Source: Parcubacteria group bacterium
GTDB taxonomy: Bacteria > Patescibacteriota > Minisyncoccia > Minisyncoccales > JAGUVE01
Length of the DNA stretch: 26,190 nucleotides
Direction of reading: 5' to 3'
Assembly: GCA_020063075.1 (NCBI GenBank)
Contig: JAGUVE010000030.1
Coordinates: forward strand, 1 to 26,190
Part shown: piece by piece, positions 11,534-19,076 of the stretch
Position numbering within the stretch: the stretch's first letter is position 1
How the letters are laid out: every line of letters begins with the position of its first letter
Program-made: the position numbers and the translations under genes
The notes under the pieces: model-generated
What the model was told of the DNA's origin: nothing
The model's database searches: none
Seen by the model: the letters and a program-made list of their open reading frames with translations, nothing else

Positions 11534-12217
11534 CTAAATTTCTAATTTTTGAATTTTACTTTTAAAACTTTCCCAACCTATTTCTTTCTCTCCGGCTGAA
11601 CGGCAAATATCCTTAAACTGACAATATCGACACTGCCAGTTGTCCGGATAATCGGGCAACCGCAAGGGAACTATGTCGCCCTCAATTTTTGCTTTAATTT
11701 GAGCTAAATCGTTTAAAAGTTTTTGACAACGAAGCGGGTCATAATTTATTACAAATTCTTTTAACTGGGAAGTATTTTTATTCATATATAAAAGAATCCC
11801 TTTTGGAATTTTGAAAAAATGCAAATAGAGCTGGATTTGATTGATGTTTTCTTCTTTCGCCGCCTCTAATTTTTGAAAAATCATACTGTTCATACTCTTG
11901 AAATCAACCACATAAAGTTCGTTGTTTAAAGTAATGATAGCGTCGGCTCTGCCTGAAATCATTTCTTGGGGCGGGATATTTATTTCCGAAGCCCTAACTA
12001 CGCCCAAACTAAACAAGGTATTTAAAATCTGCATTTGGACATAGTCGCCGTGGTCAAACATTCTCAGAACCTCGGGCGTCATTTTCTCTCTCGGCACATT
12101 TTTAAACTTAAAAAAAACCGCCCGGCCGCATTTTCCGGCATCGGTAATGTAAAAACGGTGCTGTTCTCTGTCTCTTTCCCGGTCAGAATAAAATTTATCA
12201 ATAATTTCTTTTAGCAT
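11534..12217 (-). CDS. Solo Cas4-like PD-(D/E)XK nuclease with predicted 4Fe-4S cysteines
   Basis: KCGR (Cys1), SGRADAII...VVDFKS, QIQLY, C-terminal CRYCQFKDIC; no other cas gene or array in the window. Confidence 0.8.
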   Translation of the reverse strand: MLKEIIDKFYSDRERDREQHRFYITDAGKCGRAVFFKFKNVPREKMTPEVLRMFDHGDYVQMQILNTLFSLGVVRASEINIPPQEMISGRADAIITLNNELYVVDFKSMNSMIFQKLEAAKEENINQIQLYLHFFKIPKGILLYMNKNTSQLKEFVINYDPLRCQKLLNDLAQIKAKIEGDIVPLRLPDYPDNWQCRYCQFKDICRSAGEKEIGWESFKSKIQKLEI

Positions 12218-12225
12218 TATTTATC

Positions 12226-12254
12226 ATTATATATATCTTCGTTGTTTTTTGCAA
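12226..12254 (-). promoter_or_regulatory. sigma70 promoter of the Cas4-like gene
   Basis: TTGCAA (12254-12249), N17, TATAAT (12231-12226), 8 nt, ATG (12217). Confidence 0.75.
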
Positions 12255-12279
12255 ATAAAAAATCGCCATTTTGGCGATT
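12253..12279 (-). terminator. Intrinsic terminator after the TA operon; left copy of the island-bounding direct repeat
   Basis: AATCGCCA-AAA-TGGCGATT hairpin followed by TTTTATTT on the minus strand. Confidence 0.75.
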
Positions 12280-12324
12280 AATCTTTATAAAACCACGGGT
12301 CTCTAATTGTAATCCCTTGAATTT

Positions 12325-12585
12325 TTAACAATCTTTATAAATATTTTTCCGATGGCCAACTTTTAAAATAGTTATTTTATGATTTTCTACATCAAAAAGT
12401 ACTCTATAATCCCCTATCCGAAATCGATATTCCCCAAATCTATAATCTTTTAATTTCTCAGCGAATCTTAAGGGATTTTCTTGGAGAGAATAAAATTTGA
12501 GTTTCTTTAAAATTCTTTGGCGAATTTGAAGCGGTAACTTATCTATTTCTTTTGCCGCTTTCTTTTTAAATTCAAAAATGAGCAC
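12325..12585 (-). CDS. RelE/ParE-family type II toxin
   Basis: 86 aa, GTG start; YRFRIGDYRVLFDV and ILKVGHRKNIY are RelE hallmarks. Confidence 0.88.
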   Translation of the reverse strand: MLIFEFKKKAAKEIDKLPLQIRQRILKKLKFYSLQENPLRFAEKLKDYRFGEYRFRIGDYRVLFDVENHKITILKVGHRKNIYKDC

Positions 12586-12600
12586 AAATTTACACTGGCT

Positions 12601-12822
12601 TTAAACGCGATGCTTTTTAAGTAGTTTTTCTAAAGATACGGCTTTCTTTTCTTTTCTTCTTTTATTAATTTCTCTAGCTAAACTCTCCGAACGATACATC
12701 TCTAAATCTTCTAATTCCTCTTCAACTTTCTTCCATTTTTCTAAAGGTAAAATCACTACGCCTTCTTTCTCTCTAATGGCAGATTTTGGTAAAGTTATGC
12801 TTTTTGTATTTTGAACAGCCAT
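12601..12822 (-). CDS. Putative cognate antitoxin
   Basis: 73 aa directly upstream of the toxin; VVILPLEKW...LEDLEMY...VSLEKLLKK pattern. Confidence 0.7.
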   Translation of the reverse strand: MAVQNTKSITLPKSAIREKEGVVILPLEKWKKVEEELEDLEMYRSESLAREINKRRKEKKAVSLEKLLKKHRV

Positions 12823-12830
12823 ACAAAATT

Positions 12831-12858
12831 ATTGTAGCAAAATAAAACATTATGTCAA
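12831..12858 (-). promoter_or_regulatory. sigma70 promoter of the TA operon
   Basis: TTGACA (12858-12853), N16 ending in TGC, TACAAT (12836-12831), 8 nt, ATG (12822). Confidence 0.75.
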
Positions 12859-12931
12859 AATCTACAAAAGTAGAAATTGGATATATCTATTAGACAAAAA
12901 AATGCACAAAATTTTGCAAAATATATTATGA

Positions 12932-13025
12932 TTATTTAAACGATTTATTTAAAGCGCTTTTCAAAAATTCTTTGAGCTTTGATTTTTACCTCTCCTAATT
13001 TTTTTGTTAGCTAATTCGTTTTCAT
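12932..13025 (-). pseudogene. Remnant of a type I R-M specificity gene (hsdS): 5' end joined to a probable 3' end
   Basis: ATG at 13025 overlaps the TGA of the 198-aa ORF and reads MKTN*LTKKLGEV (TAG where HsdS has W in W..KKLGEV); a second frame gives KLKEFLKSALNKSFK*. Confidence 0.55.
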
Positions 13026-13618
13026 ATAAGGGTATTGGATATACTGAACACAAACAACAAAAGGCCTAAACCAAAAATAAATAGAAATAAATAATACAAT
13101 TTATTTAGCAGAGCAGAGTGTTGGGTAATTGGTTTAACTTCCTGTCCGTAAACTTTTTTACTTTCTTCTTTAATGTTGAGATAATTTTCAATATGTTCTC
13201 TTTTGAGCGTTCCGTCTATTGCCTGTGAATAGATGCCAACCACTTCTTTTAGTTGCCGATTAAGAAGCTTTTGCTCGGCATCGTTTTGCAATTTACTATG
13301 CACCCCTCCTTTTTCGTTAGAAAAAATAATTAAGCCAATACCATAAAAAGCGCTCACCATCAGTAGAGCAACTGATACGATAGAGAGATAATCCGCCATT
13401 TCATTGCTTGCATAAATCGGAAATACTATAGCGACCATTGCGATTGCTAGTGATGAAAAAGCAACTATTGATGCATGCTTGCGCTCTATAATACGGTTCT
13501 CCCTATTCTCAAATTCAAACATCCGTTGAATTGAAAGACTGGTTAAAACATCTCGGGTCGTTCTAAATTCATCCTGTGCTAATTTGAGTTCTTTTCCGTC
13601 CATAAATTTATTTTCCAA
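13022..13618 (-). CDS. Hypothetical membrane protein (about 3 TM segments); start may be ATG 13603
   Basis: 198-aa ORF with hydrophobic stretches IVAFSSLAIAMVAIVF, LSIVSVALLMVSAFYGIGLIIF and YYLFLFIFGLGLLLFVFSI. Confidence 0.7.
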   Translation of the reverse strand: MENKFMDGKELKLAQDEFRTTRDVLTSLSIQRMFEFENRENRIIERKHASIVAFSSLAIAMVAIVFPIYASNEMADYLSIVSVALLMVSAFYGIGLIIFSNEKGGVHSKLQNDAEQKLLNRQLKEVVGIYSQAIDGTLKREHIENYLNIKEESKKVYGQEVKPITQHSALLNKLYYLFLFIFGLGLLLFVFSISNTLI

Positions 13619-13645
13619 TTTTTGTTGGCAAAGTCATAATCAACC

Positions 13646-14503
13646 CTACTTTAATTTAAGTTTGAATTTGTTATGGTACTGATAATTATATAACTTTTCT
13701 ATAAAATTCGTTTTCTTCTCGCGAGATTCTTTTGCGAAAAATTCTTTTATCTTCTTATCCAGCCAAATCGAGGACTTTTCGCACGAAAGCAAAATTAAAA
13801 AGAAAAGCAAAACAATGGATGGGTTTGATAATGAAAATTCTCCAAAGGCCCAAAGATGTCCTAGAAAAACAGCGGAAGGAAAGGCCACCAATAGAATAGC
13901 GAAAAGTATATTCTTTGATATGTAAAAGTATTTGAAGAATGGCTCTATATTCTTTTCTTCATCTTTTACGGGTTGGTTCTCGCGACTAAAATGATACTTA
14001 TCAATCGATACTCTCACTCTTTCGTAATGTTTTTCTGATAGCCAAAATAAAATTTTCAATACTAAATTGATCAGCGTATTTAGTTTTCGTTTGAAAAAAA
14101 GTCGATCAGCCAAATGATTAGCTGCTAAAATTTCTACAAACTCGTTAAGGGTAAAACTTTGATTCCTTTGCCGATAGACTACTCTCCTGGTTGTGCTGTC
14201 GAAAACGATTGGTTCTTCGCTGTCGGAGAAAAAGTTTGTGATTTTTCTTTTATACTCATTTCCATCGGAAATAATATAGCTCGTTGATTCTTCTCTTTTT
14301 TCGGGCCTGGTCATATTTACCGAATAGAAAAAATCCCGATCAAGAACGGCGACCTTGATAAACATCCGCCTTCTATCCTTGAAATAAATGGTATCTTTGG
14401 GGTAATAGCGAATCAGCGAAAAACCAGTTTCGTTCGCAAATGAGGTGATTGATTCATCTACGCCTTGACGGATGTAGAGTTTTGTAAATTCTTCACTGTT
14501 CAT
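13646..14503 (-). CDS. Hypothetical protein with soluble N-terminal domain and about 2 C-terminal TM segments
   Basis: 285-aa ORF; ATGA overlap with the upstream hsdM-like remnant. Confidence 0.72.
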   Translation of the reverse strand: MNSEEFTKLYIRQGVDESITSFANETGFSLIRYYPKDTIYFKDRRRMFIKVAVLDRDFFYSVNMTRPEKREESTSYIISDGNEYKRKITNFFSDSEEPIVFDSTTRRVVYRQRNQSFTLNEFVEILAANHLADRLFFKRKLNTLINLVLKILFWLSEKHYERVRVSIDKYHFSRENQPVKDEEKNIEPFFKYFYISKNILFAILLVAFPSAVFLGHLWAFGEFSLSNPSIVLLFFLILLSCEKSSIWLDKKIKEFFAKESREKKTNFIEKLYNYQYHNKFKLKLK

Positions 14504-14583
14504 AACAATTTTTTAATTTCACCCAGCGCCGAGTTGAGCCTTTTCTCTCCAGTTTCAATCTCCTTCAAAATTTCTTCCGGCTC
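14500..14583 (-). pseudogene. 3' remnant of a type I R-M modification gene (hsdM C-terminal helix)
   Basis: Reads EPEEILKEIETGEKRLNSALGEIKKLL*; TGA overlaps the next ATG; the upstream codon is a stop. Confidence 0.55.
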
Positions 14584-14627
14584 TCAACAATTTTTATCTC
14601 CCCTGGCGTTAGGCCGTAGAGTTTATA
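14565..14627 (-). pseudogene. 3' remnant of a type IIG/Eco57I-like R-M gene
   Basis: Reads YKLYGLTPGEIKIVE, matching the recurrent C-terminal YxLYGLTxEEIxIVE motif of these enzymes; no upstream gene body. Confidence 0.6.
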
Positions 14628-14637
14628 ATCCCTTAAG

Positions 14638-14684
14638 TTATCCACAGTTGACTACTACTCTGCGTTCTAAAAATGTTCTATAAT
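14638..14684 (+). promoter_or_regulatory. Upstream region of lexA-MTase: perfect DnaA box, GTTC-N7-GTTC direct repeat and TATAAT
   Basis: TTATCCACA 14638-14646; TTGACT 14648-14653; GTTC 14664-14667 and 14675-14678; TATAAT 14679-14684 (too far from TTGACT for one canonical promoter). Confidence 0.45.
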
Positions 14685-14720
14685 ATAATTGTAGCATATA
14701 AAAGCGAACCGTCAATAATT

Positions 14721-16580
14721 ATGCTTACAAAAAGACAAAAACAGATTCTTGATTACATAAAGAAGTTTATAAAAGACAAGAACTACTCTCCTTCTTTTGA
14801 AGAAATAAGAAGGCATTTTAGATTCGTTTCAAAATCTACCGTTCATCACCACATAGAAACACTAAAAGAAAAGGGATGCCTTAACCGCGCACGGACTATA
14901 GAGTTGTCTAAAGATGAAAAATCTTCTGGCCTTGTGGAAATTACCCTGCTCGGCACCATTGCTGCCGGCCAACCAATTGAAGCGATAGAAAATCCAGAAA
15001 CGATAACTATTCCTTCTAGCGAATTGGGAAGGTATAACAATTATTATGCATTAAGGGTTGAGGGAAATAGCATGATTGATGATGGAATATATGATGGCGA
15101 CATTGTAGTTATAAAACAACAAAGCACTGCGGATAATGGTCAGACTGTCGTGGCTATTATCAATGACAATGAAGCAACACTTAAAAAAATATACCGAGAA
15201 AAAGACAGATTTAGGCTACAACCAGCAAATCCTACTCTTTTTCCAATTTATCCAAAAGAATTAGAAGTAAGAGGCGTGGTAGTAAAAATTATTAGAAATT
15301 TTGAAAAACAAATTGTAAGAGAAAAAATATCAGACCATAAATTACAAAGAAGAATTGATTATTCGTGGGATTTCAATGGTGCAAAAACAAAACCTTATAC
15401 ACATGGATTTCATACCTATCCGGCGATGTTTATTCCTCAAGTCGCAAGACGACTCCTTTTAACTTATAGCCAAAAGGGCGATACTATTTGCGATATATTC
15501 TGTGGTTCTGGAACCGCCTTAATTGAAAGCAGATTACTCGGCCGTAATTCTTATGGCATAGATCTTAATCCTTTGGCTACATTTCTGGCCAAAGCCAAGA
15601 CCATACCCATTGATCCAAAAATTCTTTCAAGAGAATATTTAAAACTTTTGGACAAAATCAAAAAAATTAAAAATAATGAAATAGAGAAGCCGCAATTTTA
15701 TAATATTAACTTCTGGTTTAAAGATAAAATTATTATTGAACTGGCAAAAATAAAAAAGGCAATTAGAGAAATTAGCAATAAAAATATCCAGAATTTCTTT
15801 TTAGTCGCTTTTAGCGAGACAGCGAGAAAGTCATCAAATACAAAAAGTGGGGAATATAAATTGGTAAGAATGAGAAAAGAAGAATTGGAAAAACATAATC
15901 CGAATGTTTTAGAAATCTTCAGAAAAAGGGTTGAAACGAACCTTAAAGGAATGGAAGAATATTATAAAGATGTTGATAAGAAAACATGGGCTAAGGTTAT
16001 CTACGGGGATTCATCCAAAGATAATAGCATAAAAGAGAATTCAATTGACTGCATAATAACTTCGCCGCCTTATGGAGATAGCAGAACAACTGTTGCTTAT
16101 GGTCAATTCTCTCGTCTTTCTGCCCAATGGATAGACATCTTTGATAATCCTGATGATGCCTCTGGCGTAGATAAAAAATTATTGGGTGGCAATGGCATAC
16201 CAACTATAAACCATTATTTGCCTTCAAACTACCTAAAAGAATCTTTGCAAAAAATACAAAAGAAAGATGAAAAAAGAGCAAAAGAGGTCTTAAGTTTTTA
16301 TATTGGATTGAATGATTGTCTCAAGAATGCCTACGAAATATTAAAACCAAATAAATACTTTTGTTTAGTAATAGGAAACCGCCTCGTAAAACAAGTAAGA
16401 ATCCCTACCGATTTTATAATTGCTGAATTAGCCGAAAAAATCGGGTTTGTTTGCGAAGATATTATGGTTCGTAATATTCCTGGCAAAAGAATGCCAATTA
16501 AAAACTCACCAACTAATATTGCCGGCGAATTGGAAGAAACGATGACTAAAGAAAGTATAGTGATATTAAGGAAAACCTAA
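14721..16580 (+). CDS. LexA repressor fused to an alpha-class N4-cytosine DNA methyltransferase (619 aa from ATG 14721)
   Basis: LTKRQKQILDYI/SPSFEEI/STVHHHI HTH; IAAGQP cleavage site; GNSM Ser and TLKK Lys; then HTYPAMFIPQ, DIFCGSGT (motif I), TSPPYGDSRTTVAYGQFSRLS (motif IV), KRMPIKNSPTN; one uninterrupted frame. Confidence 0.92.
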   Translation: MLTKRQKQILDYIKKFIKDKNYSPSFEEIRRHFRFVSKSTVHHHIETLKEKGCLNRARTIELSKDEKSSGLVEITLLGTIAAGQPIEAIENPETITIPSSELGRYNNYYALRVEGNSMIDDGIYDGDIVVIKQQSTADNGQTVVAIINDNEATLKKIYREKDRFRLQPANPTLFPIYPKELEVRGVVVKIIRNFEKQIVREKISDHKLQRRIDYSWDFNGAKTKPYTHGFHTYPAMFIPQVARRLLLTYSQKGDTICDIFCGSGTALIESRLLGRNSYGIDLNPLATFLAKAKTIPIDPKILSREYLKLLDKIKKIKNNEIEKPQFYNINFWFKDKIIIELAKIKKAIREISNKNIQNFFLVAFSETARKSSNTKSGEYKLVRMRKEELEKHNPNVLEIFRKRVETNLKGMEEYYKDVDKKTWAKVIYGDSSKDNSIKENSIDCIITSPPYGDSRTTVAYGQFSRLSAQWIDIFDNPDDASGVDKKLLGGNGIPTINHYLPSNYLKESLQKIQKKDEKRAKEVLSFYIGLNDCLKNAYEILKPNKYFCLVIGNRLVKQVRIPTDFIIAELAEKIGFVCEDIMVRNIPGKRMPIKNSPTNIAGELEETMTKESIVILRKT

Positions 16581-17333
16581 CGACAAAATCTCTCTAAATC
16601 TTTGGTAATCTTTGAAAATATTTTTATCTTCCCGTATTCCTTCACATCTTTATTGCAAACATATACTCCTTCTAATTCTTGCACTCTTTCTCTATTAGCT
16701 CCGCTTTCAAATGTCTCCCAAGCCGTAACTAACAACACTTTTATTTTAAGATAACGAGACCAGGTGATTGTCTGCATTATCCTTTCAGCTAAAGTTGTCT
16801 TGGCAGATATTATCGCCATTGGTTTATTCCCTTTATCGGTTCTGACCAAAATAATATCAATATCTGGCCTGTAATCACGCACCCCCTTTTTACCCACTTT
16901 TGTTTTAAGTTTTTGCTCTAATTCTCTTTTAATCTTTCCGCTTGTAATTGCTTCAAGCGGAATCTTTTTTTTGTAAAAAATAAGTGTTTAAAATTTTAGC
17001 AACCCACAGAGCAAAATTATTACCAGCCAATGGACGCATTGTATTGGCAATACTCCTGCCTATCACTCGCAATTCCAAAAGCATTCGAGGATCCCCAAGT
17101 ATTTTTTCCCATTTTGGCAATGTTTGTGGGCTTGCCCATTTTTTAACAGCTCTTGGGGTAATAATTTTAACGACATCTTCATCGGAATTTTTCAAAATTG
17201 TAGCTAAATCGTCTCCTATTTTTAGAGGATTATCTGATTTTTTCAAAGCAGAATCTATTTTATCATCAAAAAACTTTTTAATAACTTCTTTAAATTCACT
17301 TTCTTGATTTTTATTCCAATTAGTATGAAGCAT
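16577..17333 (-). pseudogene. Type II restriction endonuclease, BsaWI/CCGG-family-like, frameshifted at an A8 tract; 251 aa if one A is removed
   Basis: ORF 16953-17333 and ORF 16577-16897 join by deleting one A from 16965-16972, giving ...FLQKKIPLEAITSGKIKRELEQKLKTKVGKKGVRDYRPDIDII...SAKTTLAERIMQT..W; PD..D..K core; convergent with the MTase. Confidence 0.75.
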
Positions 17334-17356
17334 AAAGTTATAGGTTTGTCTTTTTT

Positions 17357-17384
17357 AATATATCAGTAAAATTTATTTTTGCAA
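17357..17384 (-). promoter_or_regulatory. sigma70-like promoter of the endonuclease gene
   Basis: TTGCAA (17384-17379), N16 ending in TGA, TATATT (17362-17357). Confidence 0.55.
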
Positions 17385-17464
17385 ACCCAGTAAGACAACT
17401 TTGACTCGCTACGCGACAATTTGTCCCGAAGAAGTCGGGACAAGGCAAAGTTGCTCTACTGGGT
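17385..17464. mobile_element. 80-bp REP/MITE-like branched palindrome with apparent 2-bp AA target duplication
   Basis: ACCCAGTA...TACTGGGT ends; CAACTTTG/CAAAGTTG stem; hairpins TCGC-TAC-GCGA and TTGTCCCGA-AGAAG-TCGGGACAA; removing it restores the 12246-12279 sequence. Confidence 0.65.
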
Positions 17465-17499
17465 AAATAAAAAAATCTCCATTTTGGCGATTTTTTATT
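17465..17499 (-). terminator. Terminator after the SAM-methyltransferase gene; right copy of the island-bounding direct repeat
   Basis: aaataaaaaaatctccattttggcgatt differs from 12253-12279 by one substitution and one extra A. Confidence 0.7.
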
Positions 17500-17508
17500 C
17501 CTTAATTA

Positions 17509-18225
17509 TTAACTTCTCCCCCTCCCCCTCCCCGTGTTTGATTTCCTTGCTTTAAATTGAATAAAACCCATAACTCTGCCATCGGGAGGAAAAAATATTC
17601 TTTTTCCGGTAACTACATCTTCTACTCTAAATCCAAATTCAGAGAATCTTTTTTCTAAATATTCCCTGGAAAAATAATGAAAAAATTTTCCATTCCTCAA
17701 AAAAGTATCTTTTTCTATTTCCTTGCCTTTACCGAAAGTTTTATCGCTATAATCTTTGTCGCTAACAGACAATGCAATTATATATATGGCGCCGTTCGGC
17801 TTTAAAACGCGGCGTATTTCTTTAATGGCCTTGACAAGATGGGCATCGGTAATAAAGTTTAAACTTAAATGAGAATAAACCGCATCAAAAAATTCGTCCC
17901 AAAAAACAAATGGTTCAGCGATATCCTGAACTTTTGCTTTCAAATTAGTTATCTTCTCTTTTTTAATCCGCTCATTTAACTCGTTGATGGCTGATTCCAG
18001 AAAATCGGTGGCGACAACGAAGTGTCCTTTTTTTGCAAAAAATATTTCATCTAATCCCGCCCCGCATCCGAGCGAAAGAATTTTTGACTCGGGTTTTAAA
18101 TCTTTTACTACCTCTTTTGCAAATTGGTGGACTTTAATCTGTTTGGCTTTTTTAGGGTCTTTTAAATCTTTTTGCCAGATGCGATGTTGATTCGACACAT
18201 AAATATTTTCATTTAATGAACGCAT
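17509..18225 (-). CDS. Class I SAM-dependent methyltransferase, substrate unknown
   Basis: ILSLGCGAG motif I, VVATDF, VQDI, FDAVYSHLSL, EIRRVLKPNG. Confidence 0.85.
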   Translation of the reverse strand: MRSLNENIYVSNQHRIWQKDLKDPKKAKQIKVHQFAKEVVKDLKPESKILSLGCGAGLDEIFFAKKGHFVVATDFLESAINELNERIKKEKITNLKAKVQDIAEPFVFWDEFFDAVYSHLSLNFITDAHLVKAIKEIRRVLKPNGAIYIIALSVSDKDYSDKTFGKGKEIEKDTFLRNGKFFHYFSREYLEKRFSEFGFRVEDVVTGKRIFFPPDGRVMGFIQFKARKSNTGRGRGRS

Positions 18226-18230
18226 AATTG

Positions 18231-18260
18231 AATAAAACAGGTCTTTTTTAAAGACCTGTT
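18231..18260 (-). terminator. Intrinsic terminator at the end of the ribosomal operon
   Basis: AACAGGTCTTT-N3-AAAGACCTGTT perfect 11-bp stem (18236-18260), 5 nt after the rpsI stop, followed by TTATT. Confidence 0.75.
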
Positions 18261-18265
18261 AATCG

Positions 18266-18721
18266 CTATCTCTTTTGCCATTGAGGGGCTTTTCTTGCTC
18301 TTTTTAAACCGAATTTTTTTCTTTCTTTCATCCGAGGGTCTCGGGTTAAATAACTCAGTCGCTTTAGTCGTTTGCCGAAATCAGGATTAAACATAATCAG
18401 CGCCCGAGATATTCCCAAGCGAAGGGCTTGGGCTTGACCATAAAGACCTCCGCCCTTTACTTTGGCTGAAATCCCGAATTTATCAAGGCAATTCATTTTT
18501 TCAAGGGCGCTTTTTGCCATACTCTGGAGTTCGGGCGTAGAAAAATAATTTTCAAAATTTTTGTTATTGACGAAAAATGTTTTTTCTCCTTCGGTCAAAA
18601 GCCGAACTCTGGCTATGGCCGTTTTTCTCCTGCCAACCGCTTCAAAATATTTAACCGGCTTTTCTTTGGCAGCGGTTTTTTTCTCCGTTTTCTCTTTTTT
18701 TGTTTTGGTTTTCACCTTCAT
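18266..18721 (-). CDS. rpsI: 30S ribosomal protein S9 (start moved to ATG 18721)
   Basis: GRRKTAIARV, VKGGGLYGQAQALRLGISRAL, RDPRMKERKKFGLKRARKAPQWQKR. Confidence 0.96.
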   Translation of the reverse strand: MKVKTKTKKEKTEKKTAAKEKPVKYFEAVGRRKTAIARVRLLTEGEKTFFVNNKNFENYFSTPELQSMAKSALEKMNCLDKFGISAKVKGGGLYGQAQALRLGISRALIMFNPDFGKRLKRLSYLTRDPRMKERKKFGLKRARKAPQWQKR

Positions 18722-18728
18722 AGGTCTA

Positions 18729-19076
18729 TTATTCAACGCTTAGCCGCTTTAACCTTATTTTTCTCAGTCGGTTTTTAGGCAGCATTCCCGAAACGACCCT
18801 CTTTAAAACTTGTTCCGGATTTTGGGCCAACATTTTTTTAATCGGTGTTTCTTTCAAGCCGCCCAAGTATCCTGAATGGCGATAATATTTTTTCTGACTG
18901 ATTTTTTTACCAGTCAATTTAATTTGAGCGAAATTTTTAACAATAACAAAATCGCCCGTATCTTTATAGGGCAAATAATCGGGCCTGTGCTTTCCTTGCA
19001 AAATTATGGCGATTTGACTTGCCAGTCTGCCCAAAACTTTATTACTGGCATCTATGGTATTGGTTTTACGTTCCAT
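18729..19076 (-). CDS. rplM: 50S ribosomal protein L13 (short form)
   Basis: IDASNKVLGRLASQIA..LQGKH, DTGDFVIV, YYRHSGYLGGLK, VSGMLPKNRL. Confidence 0.96.
   Translation of the reverse strand: MERKTNTIDASNKVLGRLASQIAIILQGKHRPDYLPYKDTGDFVIVKNFAQIKLTGKKISQKKYYRHSGYLGGLKETPIKKMLAQNPEQVLKRVVSGMLPKNRLRKIRLKRLSVE

Follow-up and report, generated by a model that had tools for sequence, protein, structure and literature searches.

A probable fossil type I restriction-modification operon with two intact membrane-protein genes in a Parcubacteria group bacterium

PrrC, a soluble ABC-ATPase/anticodon nuclease, is kept latent by a type I restriction-modification (R-M) enzyme. It is released when EcoprrI is blocked, and in the Ronin system the small transmembrane (TM) effector RonA, which is lethal alone, is restrained by HsdMS (bioRxiv 10.1101/2023.04.06.535777). 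Here, we describe a locus in a small, groundwater-type Parcubacteria group bacterium in which two intact genes for predicted TM proteins of 285 and 193 amino acids (aa) lie between a remnant of hsdM and a remnant of hsdS. The window analysed is the whole of contig JAGUVE010000030.1 (26,190 nucleotides), one 26-kb contig of a 118-contig metagenome-assembled genome (712 kb, 87.5% complete). We consider it highly probable that this locus is a fossil type I R-M operon with live cargo. PrrC and Ronin represent the nearest known logic, but that logic fits poorly with cargo that was retained after the loss of HsdMS.

Remnants of hsdM and hsdS around two intact genes

A preliminary description of the region proposed that its R-M genes had been deleted nearly to their ends while two passenger genes were kept. 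The minus-strand peptide on which it relied, encoded just upstream of the 285-aa open reading frame (ORF), reads exactly as reported (EPEEILKEIETGEKRLNSALGEIKKLL*, 14583-14500), and its TGA stop and the start codon of the ORF overlap as ATGA. We aligned this stub with the 3′ end of the intact hsdM at L010, whose product ends in GPKEILGEIEDGEKKLGSALGEIRKLI* (L001 and similar labels denote loci fetched from relatives, G006 and G007 are relatives' genomes, and C4, C75 and C93 are contigs). Without gaps, 62 of the 84 nucleotides (nt) are identical, as are 18 of 27 residues. None of 100,000 shuffles reached 62, the best giving 42, and tblastn against the window returned 73% identity over 26 aa (E = 1.7e-6). 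A blastn alignment of the window with L010 runs unbroken from the 285-aa gene to 77 nt inside hsdM. The identity proposed for this hsdM tail is therefore upheld. An in-frame TGA lies immediately upstream of the stub, and no start codon is conserved. When whole HsdM proteins were compared with the window by tblastn, the stub was the sole match, and no other Hsd fragments were found in the window. The possibility that the stub encodes a conserved mini-ORF was rejected because the window offers only a TTG and the related fossil at L001 has no start codon there.

On the other side of the cargo, the stop codon of the 193-aa gene (13022) overlaps the ATG of a 13-codon hsdS head (13025-12987). This head reads MKTN*LTKKLGEV, with the tryptophan codon TGG changed to a TAG stop. 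The overlap was described correctly, but the length of 198 aa originally given to the second ORF was not: it encodes 193 aa from an ATG at 13603, the start used by all homologues. The head matches the start of the L018 hsdS (protein N-terminus MKTNWPTKKLGEV) at 33 of 42 nt and 11 of 13 residues, and blastn aligns it with the L010 hsdS start (92% over 25 nt, E = 7e-5). Near 12986, it is joined to a tail of about 17 codons (12985-12932), KSKLKEFLKSALNKSFK*, which lies in a shifted frame and ends at 12932, precisely as first read. The tail aligns with the 3′ end of the L020 hsdS (KSKLKELFDSALHKS...) over 47 columns with two 1-nt indels. About 1 kb is deleted between head and tail, comprising both target-recognition domains. 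The stub holds three disabling lesions in 94 nt (one nonsense mutation and two 1-nt indels), compared with none in the adjacent 1,440 nt of cargo. We also examined L093 for the same head-to-tail collapse, where the evidence was not significant.

Relatives carry both ORF families between intact hsdM and hsdS genes. With cargo genes named by the length of their products in aa, the order at L010, L011 and L012 is hsdR(partial)-hsdM(507 aa)-288-137-205-hsdS(389 aa); these loci hold the nearest homologue of the 285-aa protein (P0002, 72% identity), and the stop of hsdM overlaps the ATG of the 288-aa gene. The order at L018 and L019 is hsdR-hsdM-177-141-257-193-hsdS, and in L018 the stop of the 193-aa gene overlaps the ATG of hsdS. 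At L020 to L022, the order is hsdR-NYN-hsdM-RT-193-151-hsdS; a reverse transcriptase (RT) gene with an RVT_1 domain precedes the 193-aa orthologue at these loci only. Across the source assembly, Methylase_S gave no matches, and hence no HsdS, while N6_Mtase gave a single weak match (24.6 bits) on C93, which is not the window contig, and no hsdM. A functional type I set, made up of HsdR, an intact HsdM catalytic domain and the target-recognition domains of HsdS, was not found in this 87.5%-complete genome. Stub homology, the intact operons of relatives and the lack of HsdS and hsdM in the assembly together bear out the proposal that the R-M genes were deleted nearly to their ends and that the passengers are intact.

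A second fossil operon is present at L001, L002 and L003, downstream of a type II system. It keeps an hsdM tail (THRDPKKILGEIETEKKKLGSALEEIKKLL*) with a breakpoint that differs from that of the window, the 288- and 137-aa genes and two orphan hsdS heads; 58 of 84 nt are identical between the window stub and the L001 fossil. This equivalent locus in three independent assemblies bears on whether the junctions are artefacts of a chimeric or collapsed metagenome assembly or of chance similarity between short peptides. Such an origin would be in keeping with a window that is one whole contig of a fragmented assembly. However, chance is excluded by the shuffle tests and E values, the point lesions of the hsdS stub are not what a collapsed assembly would produce, and a further fossil in the window, described below with the adjoining LexA block, recurs in G007. 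We therefore regard an artefact as very improbable.

We propose that the ancestral form would have been hsdR-hsdM-cargo-hsdS, set within a 6-kb defence island between rpsI and a Cas4-like gene (Table 1). From it, hsdR and hsdM have been lost up to the last 27 hsdM codons. The internal deletion of about 1 kb has collapsed hsdS, which afterwards acquired its nonsense mutation and frameshifts, and both cargo genes have come through intact.

Table 1. Positions of the features discussed, numbered along the window
Feature	Positions	Strand	Basis or remarks
Collapsed hsdS, head and tail	12932-13025	-	Homology to L018 hsdS start and L020 hsdS 3′ end
Cargo gene 2, 193 aa, intact	13022-13603	-	13 homologues, 58-82% identity
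Decayed copy of hsdS head, cassette junction between cargo genes	13604-13645	-	ATG at 13637; better-preserved junctions in L020 and L018
Cargo gene 1, 285 aa, intact	13646-14503	-	161 homologues; full-length ORF
hsdM fossil, last 27 codons and stop	14500-14583	-	Nucleotide and protein homology to intact hsdM; ATGA overlap with 285-aa gene
Type IIG (Eco57I/TaqI_C-type) fossil, last ~22 codons	14580-14645	-	Homology to L023 and L074 tails
Promoter-like site, TTGACG-16 nt-TACAAT with upstream TG	14688-14715	-	10 of 12 consensus matches; pattern match only
Variable island holding the fossil operon	12218-18265		Relatives with rpsI and Cas4-like gene adjacent; Pfam
Cas4-like gene	11534-12217		Island flank
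rpsI	18266-18736		Island flank
LexA-methylase fusion	14721-16580	+	Complete LexA (helix-turn-helix and S24 peptidase, TIGR00498 E = 4.7e-53) joined to N4/N6 DNA methylase
BsaWI-like endonuclease	16577-17333	-	Two frames, split at an A8 run near 16955-16965

The two cargo genes and their families

Neither cargo ORF is truncated, and each retains all the columns that are invariant in its family. Comparison of the 285-aa gene with its L010 counterpart gave a nonsynonymous value (pN) of 0.155 and a synonymous value (pS) of 0.79, and comparison of the 193-aa gene with that of L020 gave a pN of 0.11 and a pS of 0.56. Judged by these comparisons, both cargo genes are under purifying selection. The intact ORFs, the low pN relative to pS and the absence of lesions beside an hsdS stub with three of them argue that the cargo genes are alive.

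The 285-aa protein is predicted to comprise an N-terminal β-rich soluble domain (residues 1-118, AlphaFold2 [AF2] pLDDT ~90), a disordered linker and, by hydropathy, two TM helices at about 195-245. It has no match in Pfam, NCBIfam or PADLOC. A profile search of 1.84 billion representatives returned 92 clusters at 50% identity, all with the same architecture, and no informative fusions. Shape searches of the model in the ESM atlas gave TM-scores of at most 0.29 and named no fold. A wide VIA-align search with residues 1-130 gave Z of about 5-6 to Atg10/UBC-like folds, which is too weak for naming a fold, and the top score in a language-model atlas (0.78) was uninformative. No family members were found in IMG/VR viral contigs; hence, the gene is not evidently a phage gene. 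The protein looks like a cytoplasmic β-domain sensor anchored by two TM helices, with a putative defence role suggested by its context.

We examined about 37 distinct loci of the 285-aa family and tallied their contexts ourselves from the gene tables. In about 22, the family gene directly follows an R-M gene or R-M stub. The partners are type I hsdM or hsdS, type IIG, type ISP, ResIII helicase, GmrSD-HNH, DUF6996/6997, Dam and MvaI/BcnI. On the family tree, these R-M contexts are scattered, except for one GmrSD clade, and the type IIG tails that precede family genes survive at six loci as fossils with 8-62 open codons, compared with three loci at which the gene is intact. The varied partners, scattered contexts and fossil tails thus indicate that the 285-aa gene has repeatedly swapped its R-M partner and tends to outlast it. 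The family is an R-M-associated orphan. Both ORFs are passengers of hsd operons, as the preliminary description held, but the 285-aa family is not specific to them: the majority of its members follow R-M genes other than type I (IIG, ISP, type II or GmrSD).

Two further observations concern this family. At L024 and L044, the family gene lies behind a gene for an HsdS of a different class (473 aa), and the L044 copy of that hsdS has an in-frame stop, making it another decaying R-M neighbour. Another family, of 209 aa and without a Pfam match, is found alongside the 285-aa family, upstream at L004 and downstream at L042 and L054, and may be its partner.

The 193-aa protein is predicted to have a hairpin of two adjacent TM helices, which is the core feature of SLATT proteins (about residues 45-95, with hydropathy peaks at 42-67 and 71-96), followed by a C-terminal TM helix, and its AF2 model is all-helical. 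Its homologues (Table 1) were found within intact hsd operons. Among 12 family members, nine matched SLATT_6 (best E = 0.11, 12.6 bits against a cut-off of 27.1), 10 matched the PADLOC 2TM effector model (best E = 0.0044, below the curated threshold) and four matched the PADLOC RTasSLATT (DRT) model, again sub-threshold. In the language-model atlas, scores were 0.91-0.93 with a PycTM cluster among the matches, and the atlas fold search with the model returned no SLATT cluster. No SMODS, SLOG or RT partner of the gene is present in the window. On balance, we lean towards a SLATT-like membrane effector.

The cargo would act without HsdM and HsdS, as membrane-acting defence or abortive-infection proteins, although we put the functional roles of the two genes at roughly even odds. 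An alternative is that the cargo proteins are suicide effectors of the PrrC/Ronin type, guarded by HsdMS, and that in this genome they are non-functional leftovers that have not yet decayed. Ronin and PrrC set a precedent for an effector held by a type I complex, and both cargo families do occur within intact hsd operons. However, proteins that were toxic in the absence of HsdMS would have made the deletions lethal. The cargo ORFs are intact next to an hsdS stub with three lesions in 94 nt, cargo is likewise retained at L001-L003, and the 285-aa family lies mostly behind R-M genes that are not type I. Neither protein contained the PrrC ABC-ATPase/anticodon-nuclease domains or the RonA peptide in searches of Pfam, NCBIfam and PADLOC. 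We consider guarded leftovers unlikely.

Repeated hsdS heads and the upstream gene tails

The ATGA overlap between hsdM and the 285-aa gene matches that of L010. The proposed translational-coupling junctions form part of a broader pattern, which the preliminary description did not see, of hsdS heads that recur and gene tails that are retained. In these operons, every later cargo gene is preceded by a copy of the hsdS head, about 35 nt long (M..WPTKKLGE). In the window, the head copy is decayed (13637-13608, MTLPTKIGK*), and ATTT separates it from the ATG of the 193-aa gene. The corresponding junction at L020 reads ATG CCT TGG CCA ACA AAA AAA TTA GGA GAA TAA ATTT ATG (MPWPTKKLGE*). L018 has the same head element before its orthologous 193-aa gene, and at L010 hsdS-head copies precede the 137-aa and 205-aa genes. 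The joint between head and cargo is near-constant, GGAGA(A/G)TAA(A/G)TTTATG, and was found before the 193-, 201-, 205- and 137-aa genes and a 209-aa NYN gene.

We compared heads at about 20 loci. Eight open an intact hsdS, seven consist of the head, a stop codon and an unrelated cargo gene, two or three are fused in frame to other ORFs, and five are orphaned or collapsed. The proteins bounded by heads are mutually unrelated. Each cassette is flanked by the repeated boundary site in a single orientation, an integron-like arrangement. No recombinase was noticed near the array in the gene tables of L010, L018 and L020, which were not searched systematically for one. We found no description of cargo bounded by hsdS heads in the open-access literature text.

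Further heads were noted in these genomes. On contig C75 of the source genome (L095, 3925-6947), a second head fossil, MTWSTKKLGE*, directly precedes a 201-aa gene, downstream of a Tsp45I-type endonuclease and upstream of an NYN-like gene. On contig C4 of G007 (L085/L080), a head is fused in frame to a 270-aa protein with an N-acetylmuramidase domain, and a second, frameshifted head precedes a 97-aa ORF; ahead of this array lie a type IIG-tail fossil and a divergent LexA-methylase gene, the same as those in the window. At two unrelated loci (L001, 8130-8190; L093, ~1650-1680), orphan heads are followed by an element, AAAGTCGAA(A/G)AATTAATTGAG(G/A)AATAA, that encodes ..KVE(K/E)LIE(E/K)*.

Upstream of the hsdM stub, a type IIG fossil reads VDNLRDYKLYGLTPGEIKIVES in a frame other than that of the stub, which it overlaps by GAGC. 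It is identical at 39 of 44 nt to the sequence that precedes the L023 family gene and at 38 of 44 to L074, with a local score of 68 (shuffle mean 14.5, standard deviation 2.0). Intact enzymes with the same tail occur at L041 (903 aa), L054 and L074 (1164 aa) and have Eco57I, N6_Mtase and TaqI_C domains. An extension of the hsdM fossil upstream of 14583 in its own frame (TLRPNARGDKNC*) was rejected because that DNA is the part shared with the type IIG tails. The GAGC common to the two stubs would fit a microhomology junction. Farther upstream, the promoter-like site lies in a region shared with the divergent LexA-methylase gene, in a block that is 79% conserved with G007. As a candidate identified by pattern match, it is probably the present-day sigma-70-like promoter of both cargo genes. 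Transcription from 14715-14688 would give a leader that crosses the type IIG tail and then the hsdM tail stacked behind it.

What would have kept such short gene ends in place? We propose that they may supply the start contexts of the cargo genes: the hsdM tail through its ATGA overlap, and the hsdS head through its KKLGE codons (TTAGGAGAA), which would resemble a Shine-Dalgarno sequence placed 8-9 nt upstream of the following ATG. Since the gene ends would carry these contexts, farther-reaching deletions would have been selected against. The heads may be kept either because the KLGE codons act as a ribosome-binding site or coupling signal for the next gene or because the heads are recombination sites for cassette exchange.

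The second of these options leads to a tentative alternative for the locus as a whole, in which the stubs are a working gene-capture platform and the ~35-nt head is both a recombination and a translation adaptor. Cassettes of cargo plus head would excise head-to-head and integrate Campbell-style into another hsdS head, and hsdM or type IIG tails would provide the other homology arm. Such a platform could account for the near-identical joint before unrelated cargo genes, for the in-frame head fusions to other ORFs in G006 and G007, and for the joint on C75 beside the Tsp45I endonuclease. The head motif was found in 17 of 301 genomes of the order in a pattern scan, compared with one match for the reversed control, and occurs on the gene strand only in the fetched loci. 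In addition, the two heads within L018 carry the same three variant positions. However, no recombinase is consistently linked to the arrays, no circular intermediates were seen, and a length of 24-35 nt is borderline for recombination by RecA. The roughly 20 loci compared could equally reflect tandem hsdS copies that were replaced one after another while selection preserved only the part needed for coupling or ribosome binding.

Stated more generally, it is conceivable, if doubtful, that the first ~35 nt of hsdS (ATG..TGGCCAACAAAAAAATTAGGAGA) in the type I R-M systems of Patescibacteria is a portable adaptor that bounds cassettes and gives them a ribosome-binding site and start context. We view with the same reserve the possibility that cassettes are gained, lost and exchanged head-to-head without a dedicated integrase, with hsdM and type IIG tails playing the same role upstream. 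If so, the recurrent decapitated R-M tails before 285-family genes would be explained, and the window would be a platform whose R-M chassis has rotted while its cassettes are still used.

Our preferred reading remains a dead type I operon with live cargo, and several points weigh against it. In the head that precedes the 193-aa gene of the window, the Shine-Dalgarno-like stretch has decayed to TTGGAAAA, which weakens the ribosome-binding-site argument here. The pN/pS values cover the whole divergence from the relatives, not just the time since the deletions. Every SLATT match of the 193-aa family falls under the curated thresholds, and the best match of the AF2 model of the 285-aa protein (pLDDT 70.6) to the PDB by Foldseek had an E value of 0.18. 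Finally, the type IIG fossil and LexA promoter block recur in G007 (79% identity) before an unrelated 295-aa gene and a further head-bounded array, and the rpsI site of G007 is empty; the order of the deletion and replacement events in the window can therefore not be fixed.

The defence island and its comparison with known systems

In at least 12 relatives, which belong to other families of the order, rpsI directly neighbours the Cas4-like gene, with 3-90 nt between the two. The DNA between these genes in the window is therefore an inserted island. Its other content, identified with Pfam, comprises a ParE/Phd-like toxin-antitoxin pair, the fusion of LexA-S24 to an N4/N6 methylase, the frameshifted BsaWI-like endonuclease and an S-adenosylmethionine-dependent methyltransferase. 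G007 has the same LexA and upstream block with a different methylase partner (519 aa), and the ~110 nt upstream of the LexA-methylase gene are better conserved than its coding sequence. The frame split of the BsaWI-like gene could mean that it is a pseudogene or phase-variable, or could be a sequencing error in the homopolymer. A palindromic hairpin of 23 nt, AAAAAATCGCCATTTTGGCGATT, occurs as a direct repeat with 96% identity near both island ends (12257-12279 and 17470-17492). Its right-hand copy lies inside the island, the boundaries of which, from the empty sites of relatives, are 12218 and 18265.

The locus offers a sequence-level record of an R-M operon dying while its defence passengers stay. 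That the passengers were kept after the death of the operon argues that they work on their own. It also flags two strongly conserved families that are still uncharacterised as candidate defence genes of the little-studied candidate phyla radiation, one with a β-domain and two TM helices (285 aa) and one that is SLATT-like (193 aa). The head junctions and tail stubs could point to a simple route by which hsd and type IIG loci serve as docking sites for new defence genes. A decayed R-M operon is in itself ordinary biology; beyond it, head repeats and retained R-M tails form a patterned, cassette-like architecture for which we found no description in open-access text, and the two R-M-associated families are new.

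Like PrrC at the EcoprrI hsd locus and RloC, the cargo described here would represent accessory defence genes placed among hsd genes and co-transcribed with them. In contrast to the soluble PrrC, these are TM proteins with no Pfam match that were retained after the destruction of hsdM and hsdS. Ronin (RonA, HsdM and HsdS without HsdR, a decoy type I system) shares with the window a membrane effector tied to hsdM and hsdS and a partial loss of R-M function. However, RonA has 61 aa and needs intact HsdMS for its restraint and trigger, whereas the window has no HsdMS and its 193- and 285-aa proteins are unrelated to RonA. The 193-aa protein resembles SLATT (SMODS- and SLOG-associating 2TM), PycTM and the RT-associated SLATT proteins of DRT systems in its 2-TM hairpin, in its consistent weak matches and in one orthologue that follows a reverse transcriptase. 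It differs in its sub-cut-off scores, in having no cyclase, SLOG or RT partner in the window and in its extra C-terminal TM helix.

The repeated heads recall phase-variable hsdS shufflons and the swapping of target-recognition domains, where a locus holds several copies of conserved hsdS segments that serve as recombination substrates. There, however, hsdS halves are swapped through inverted or direct repeats and a linked recombinase, while the repeat described here spans only the first ~10-12 codons, lies in direct orientation and has unrelated cargo between its copies. The rapid turnover of R-M genes and orphan methylases in defence islands, with truncated R-M genes beside newer modules, is also familiar, and the BsaWI-like neighbour is frameshifted too. 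Here, unlike in such decay, the loss is patterned: only tails of 17-31 codons or heads of 10-13 codons that abut an intact passenger are kept, and this recurs in independent loci.

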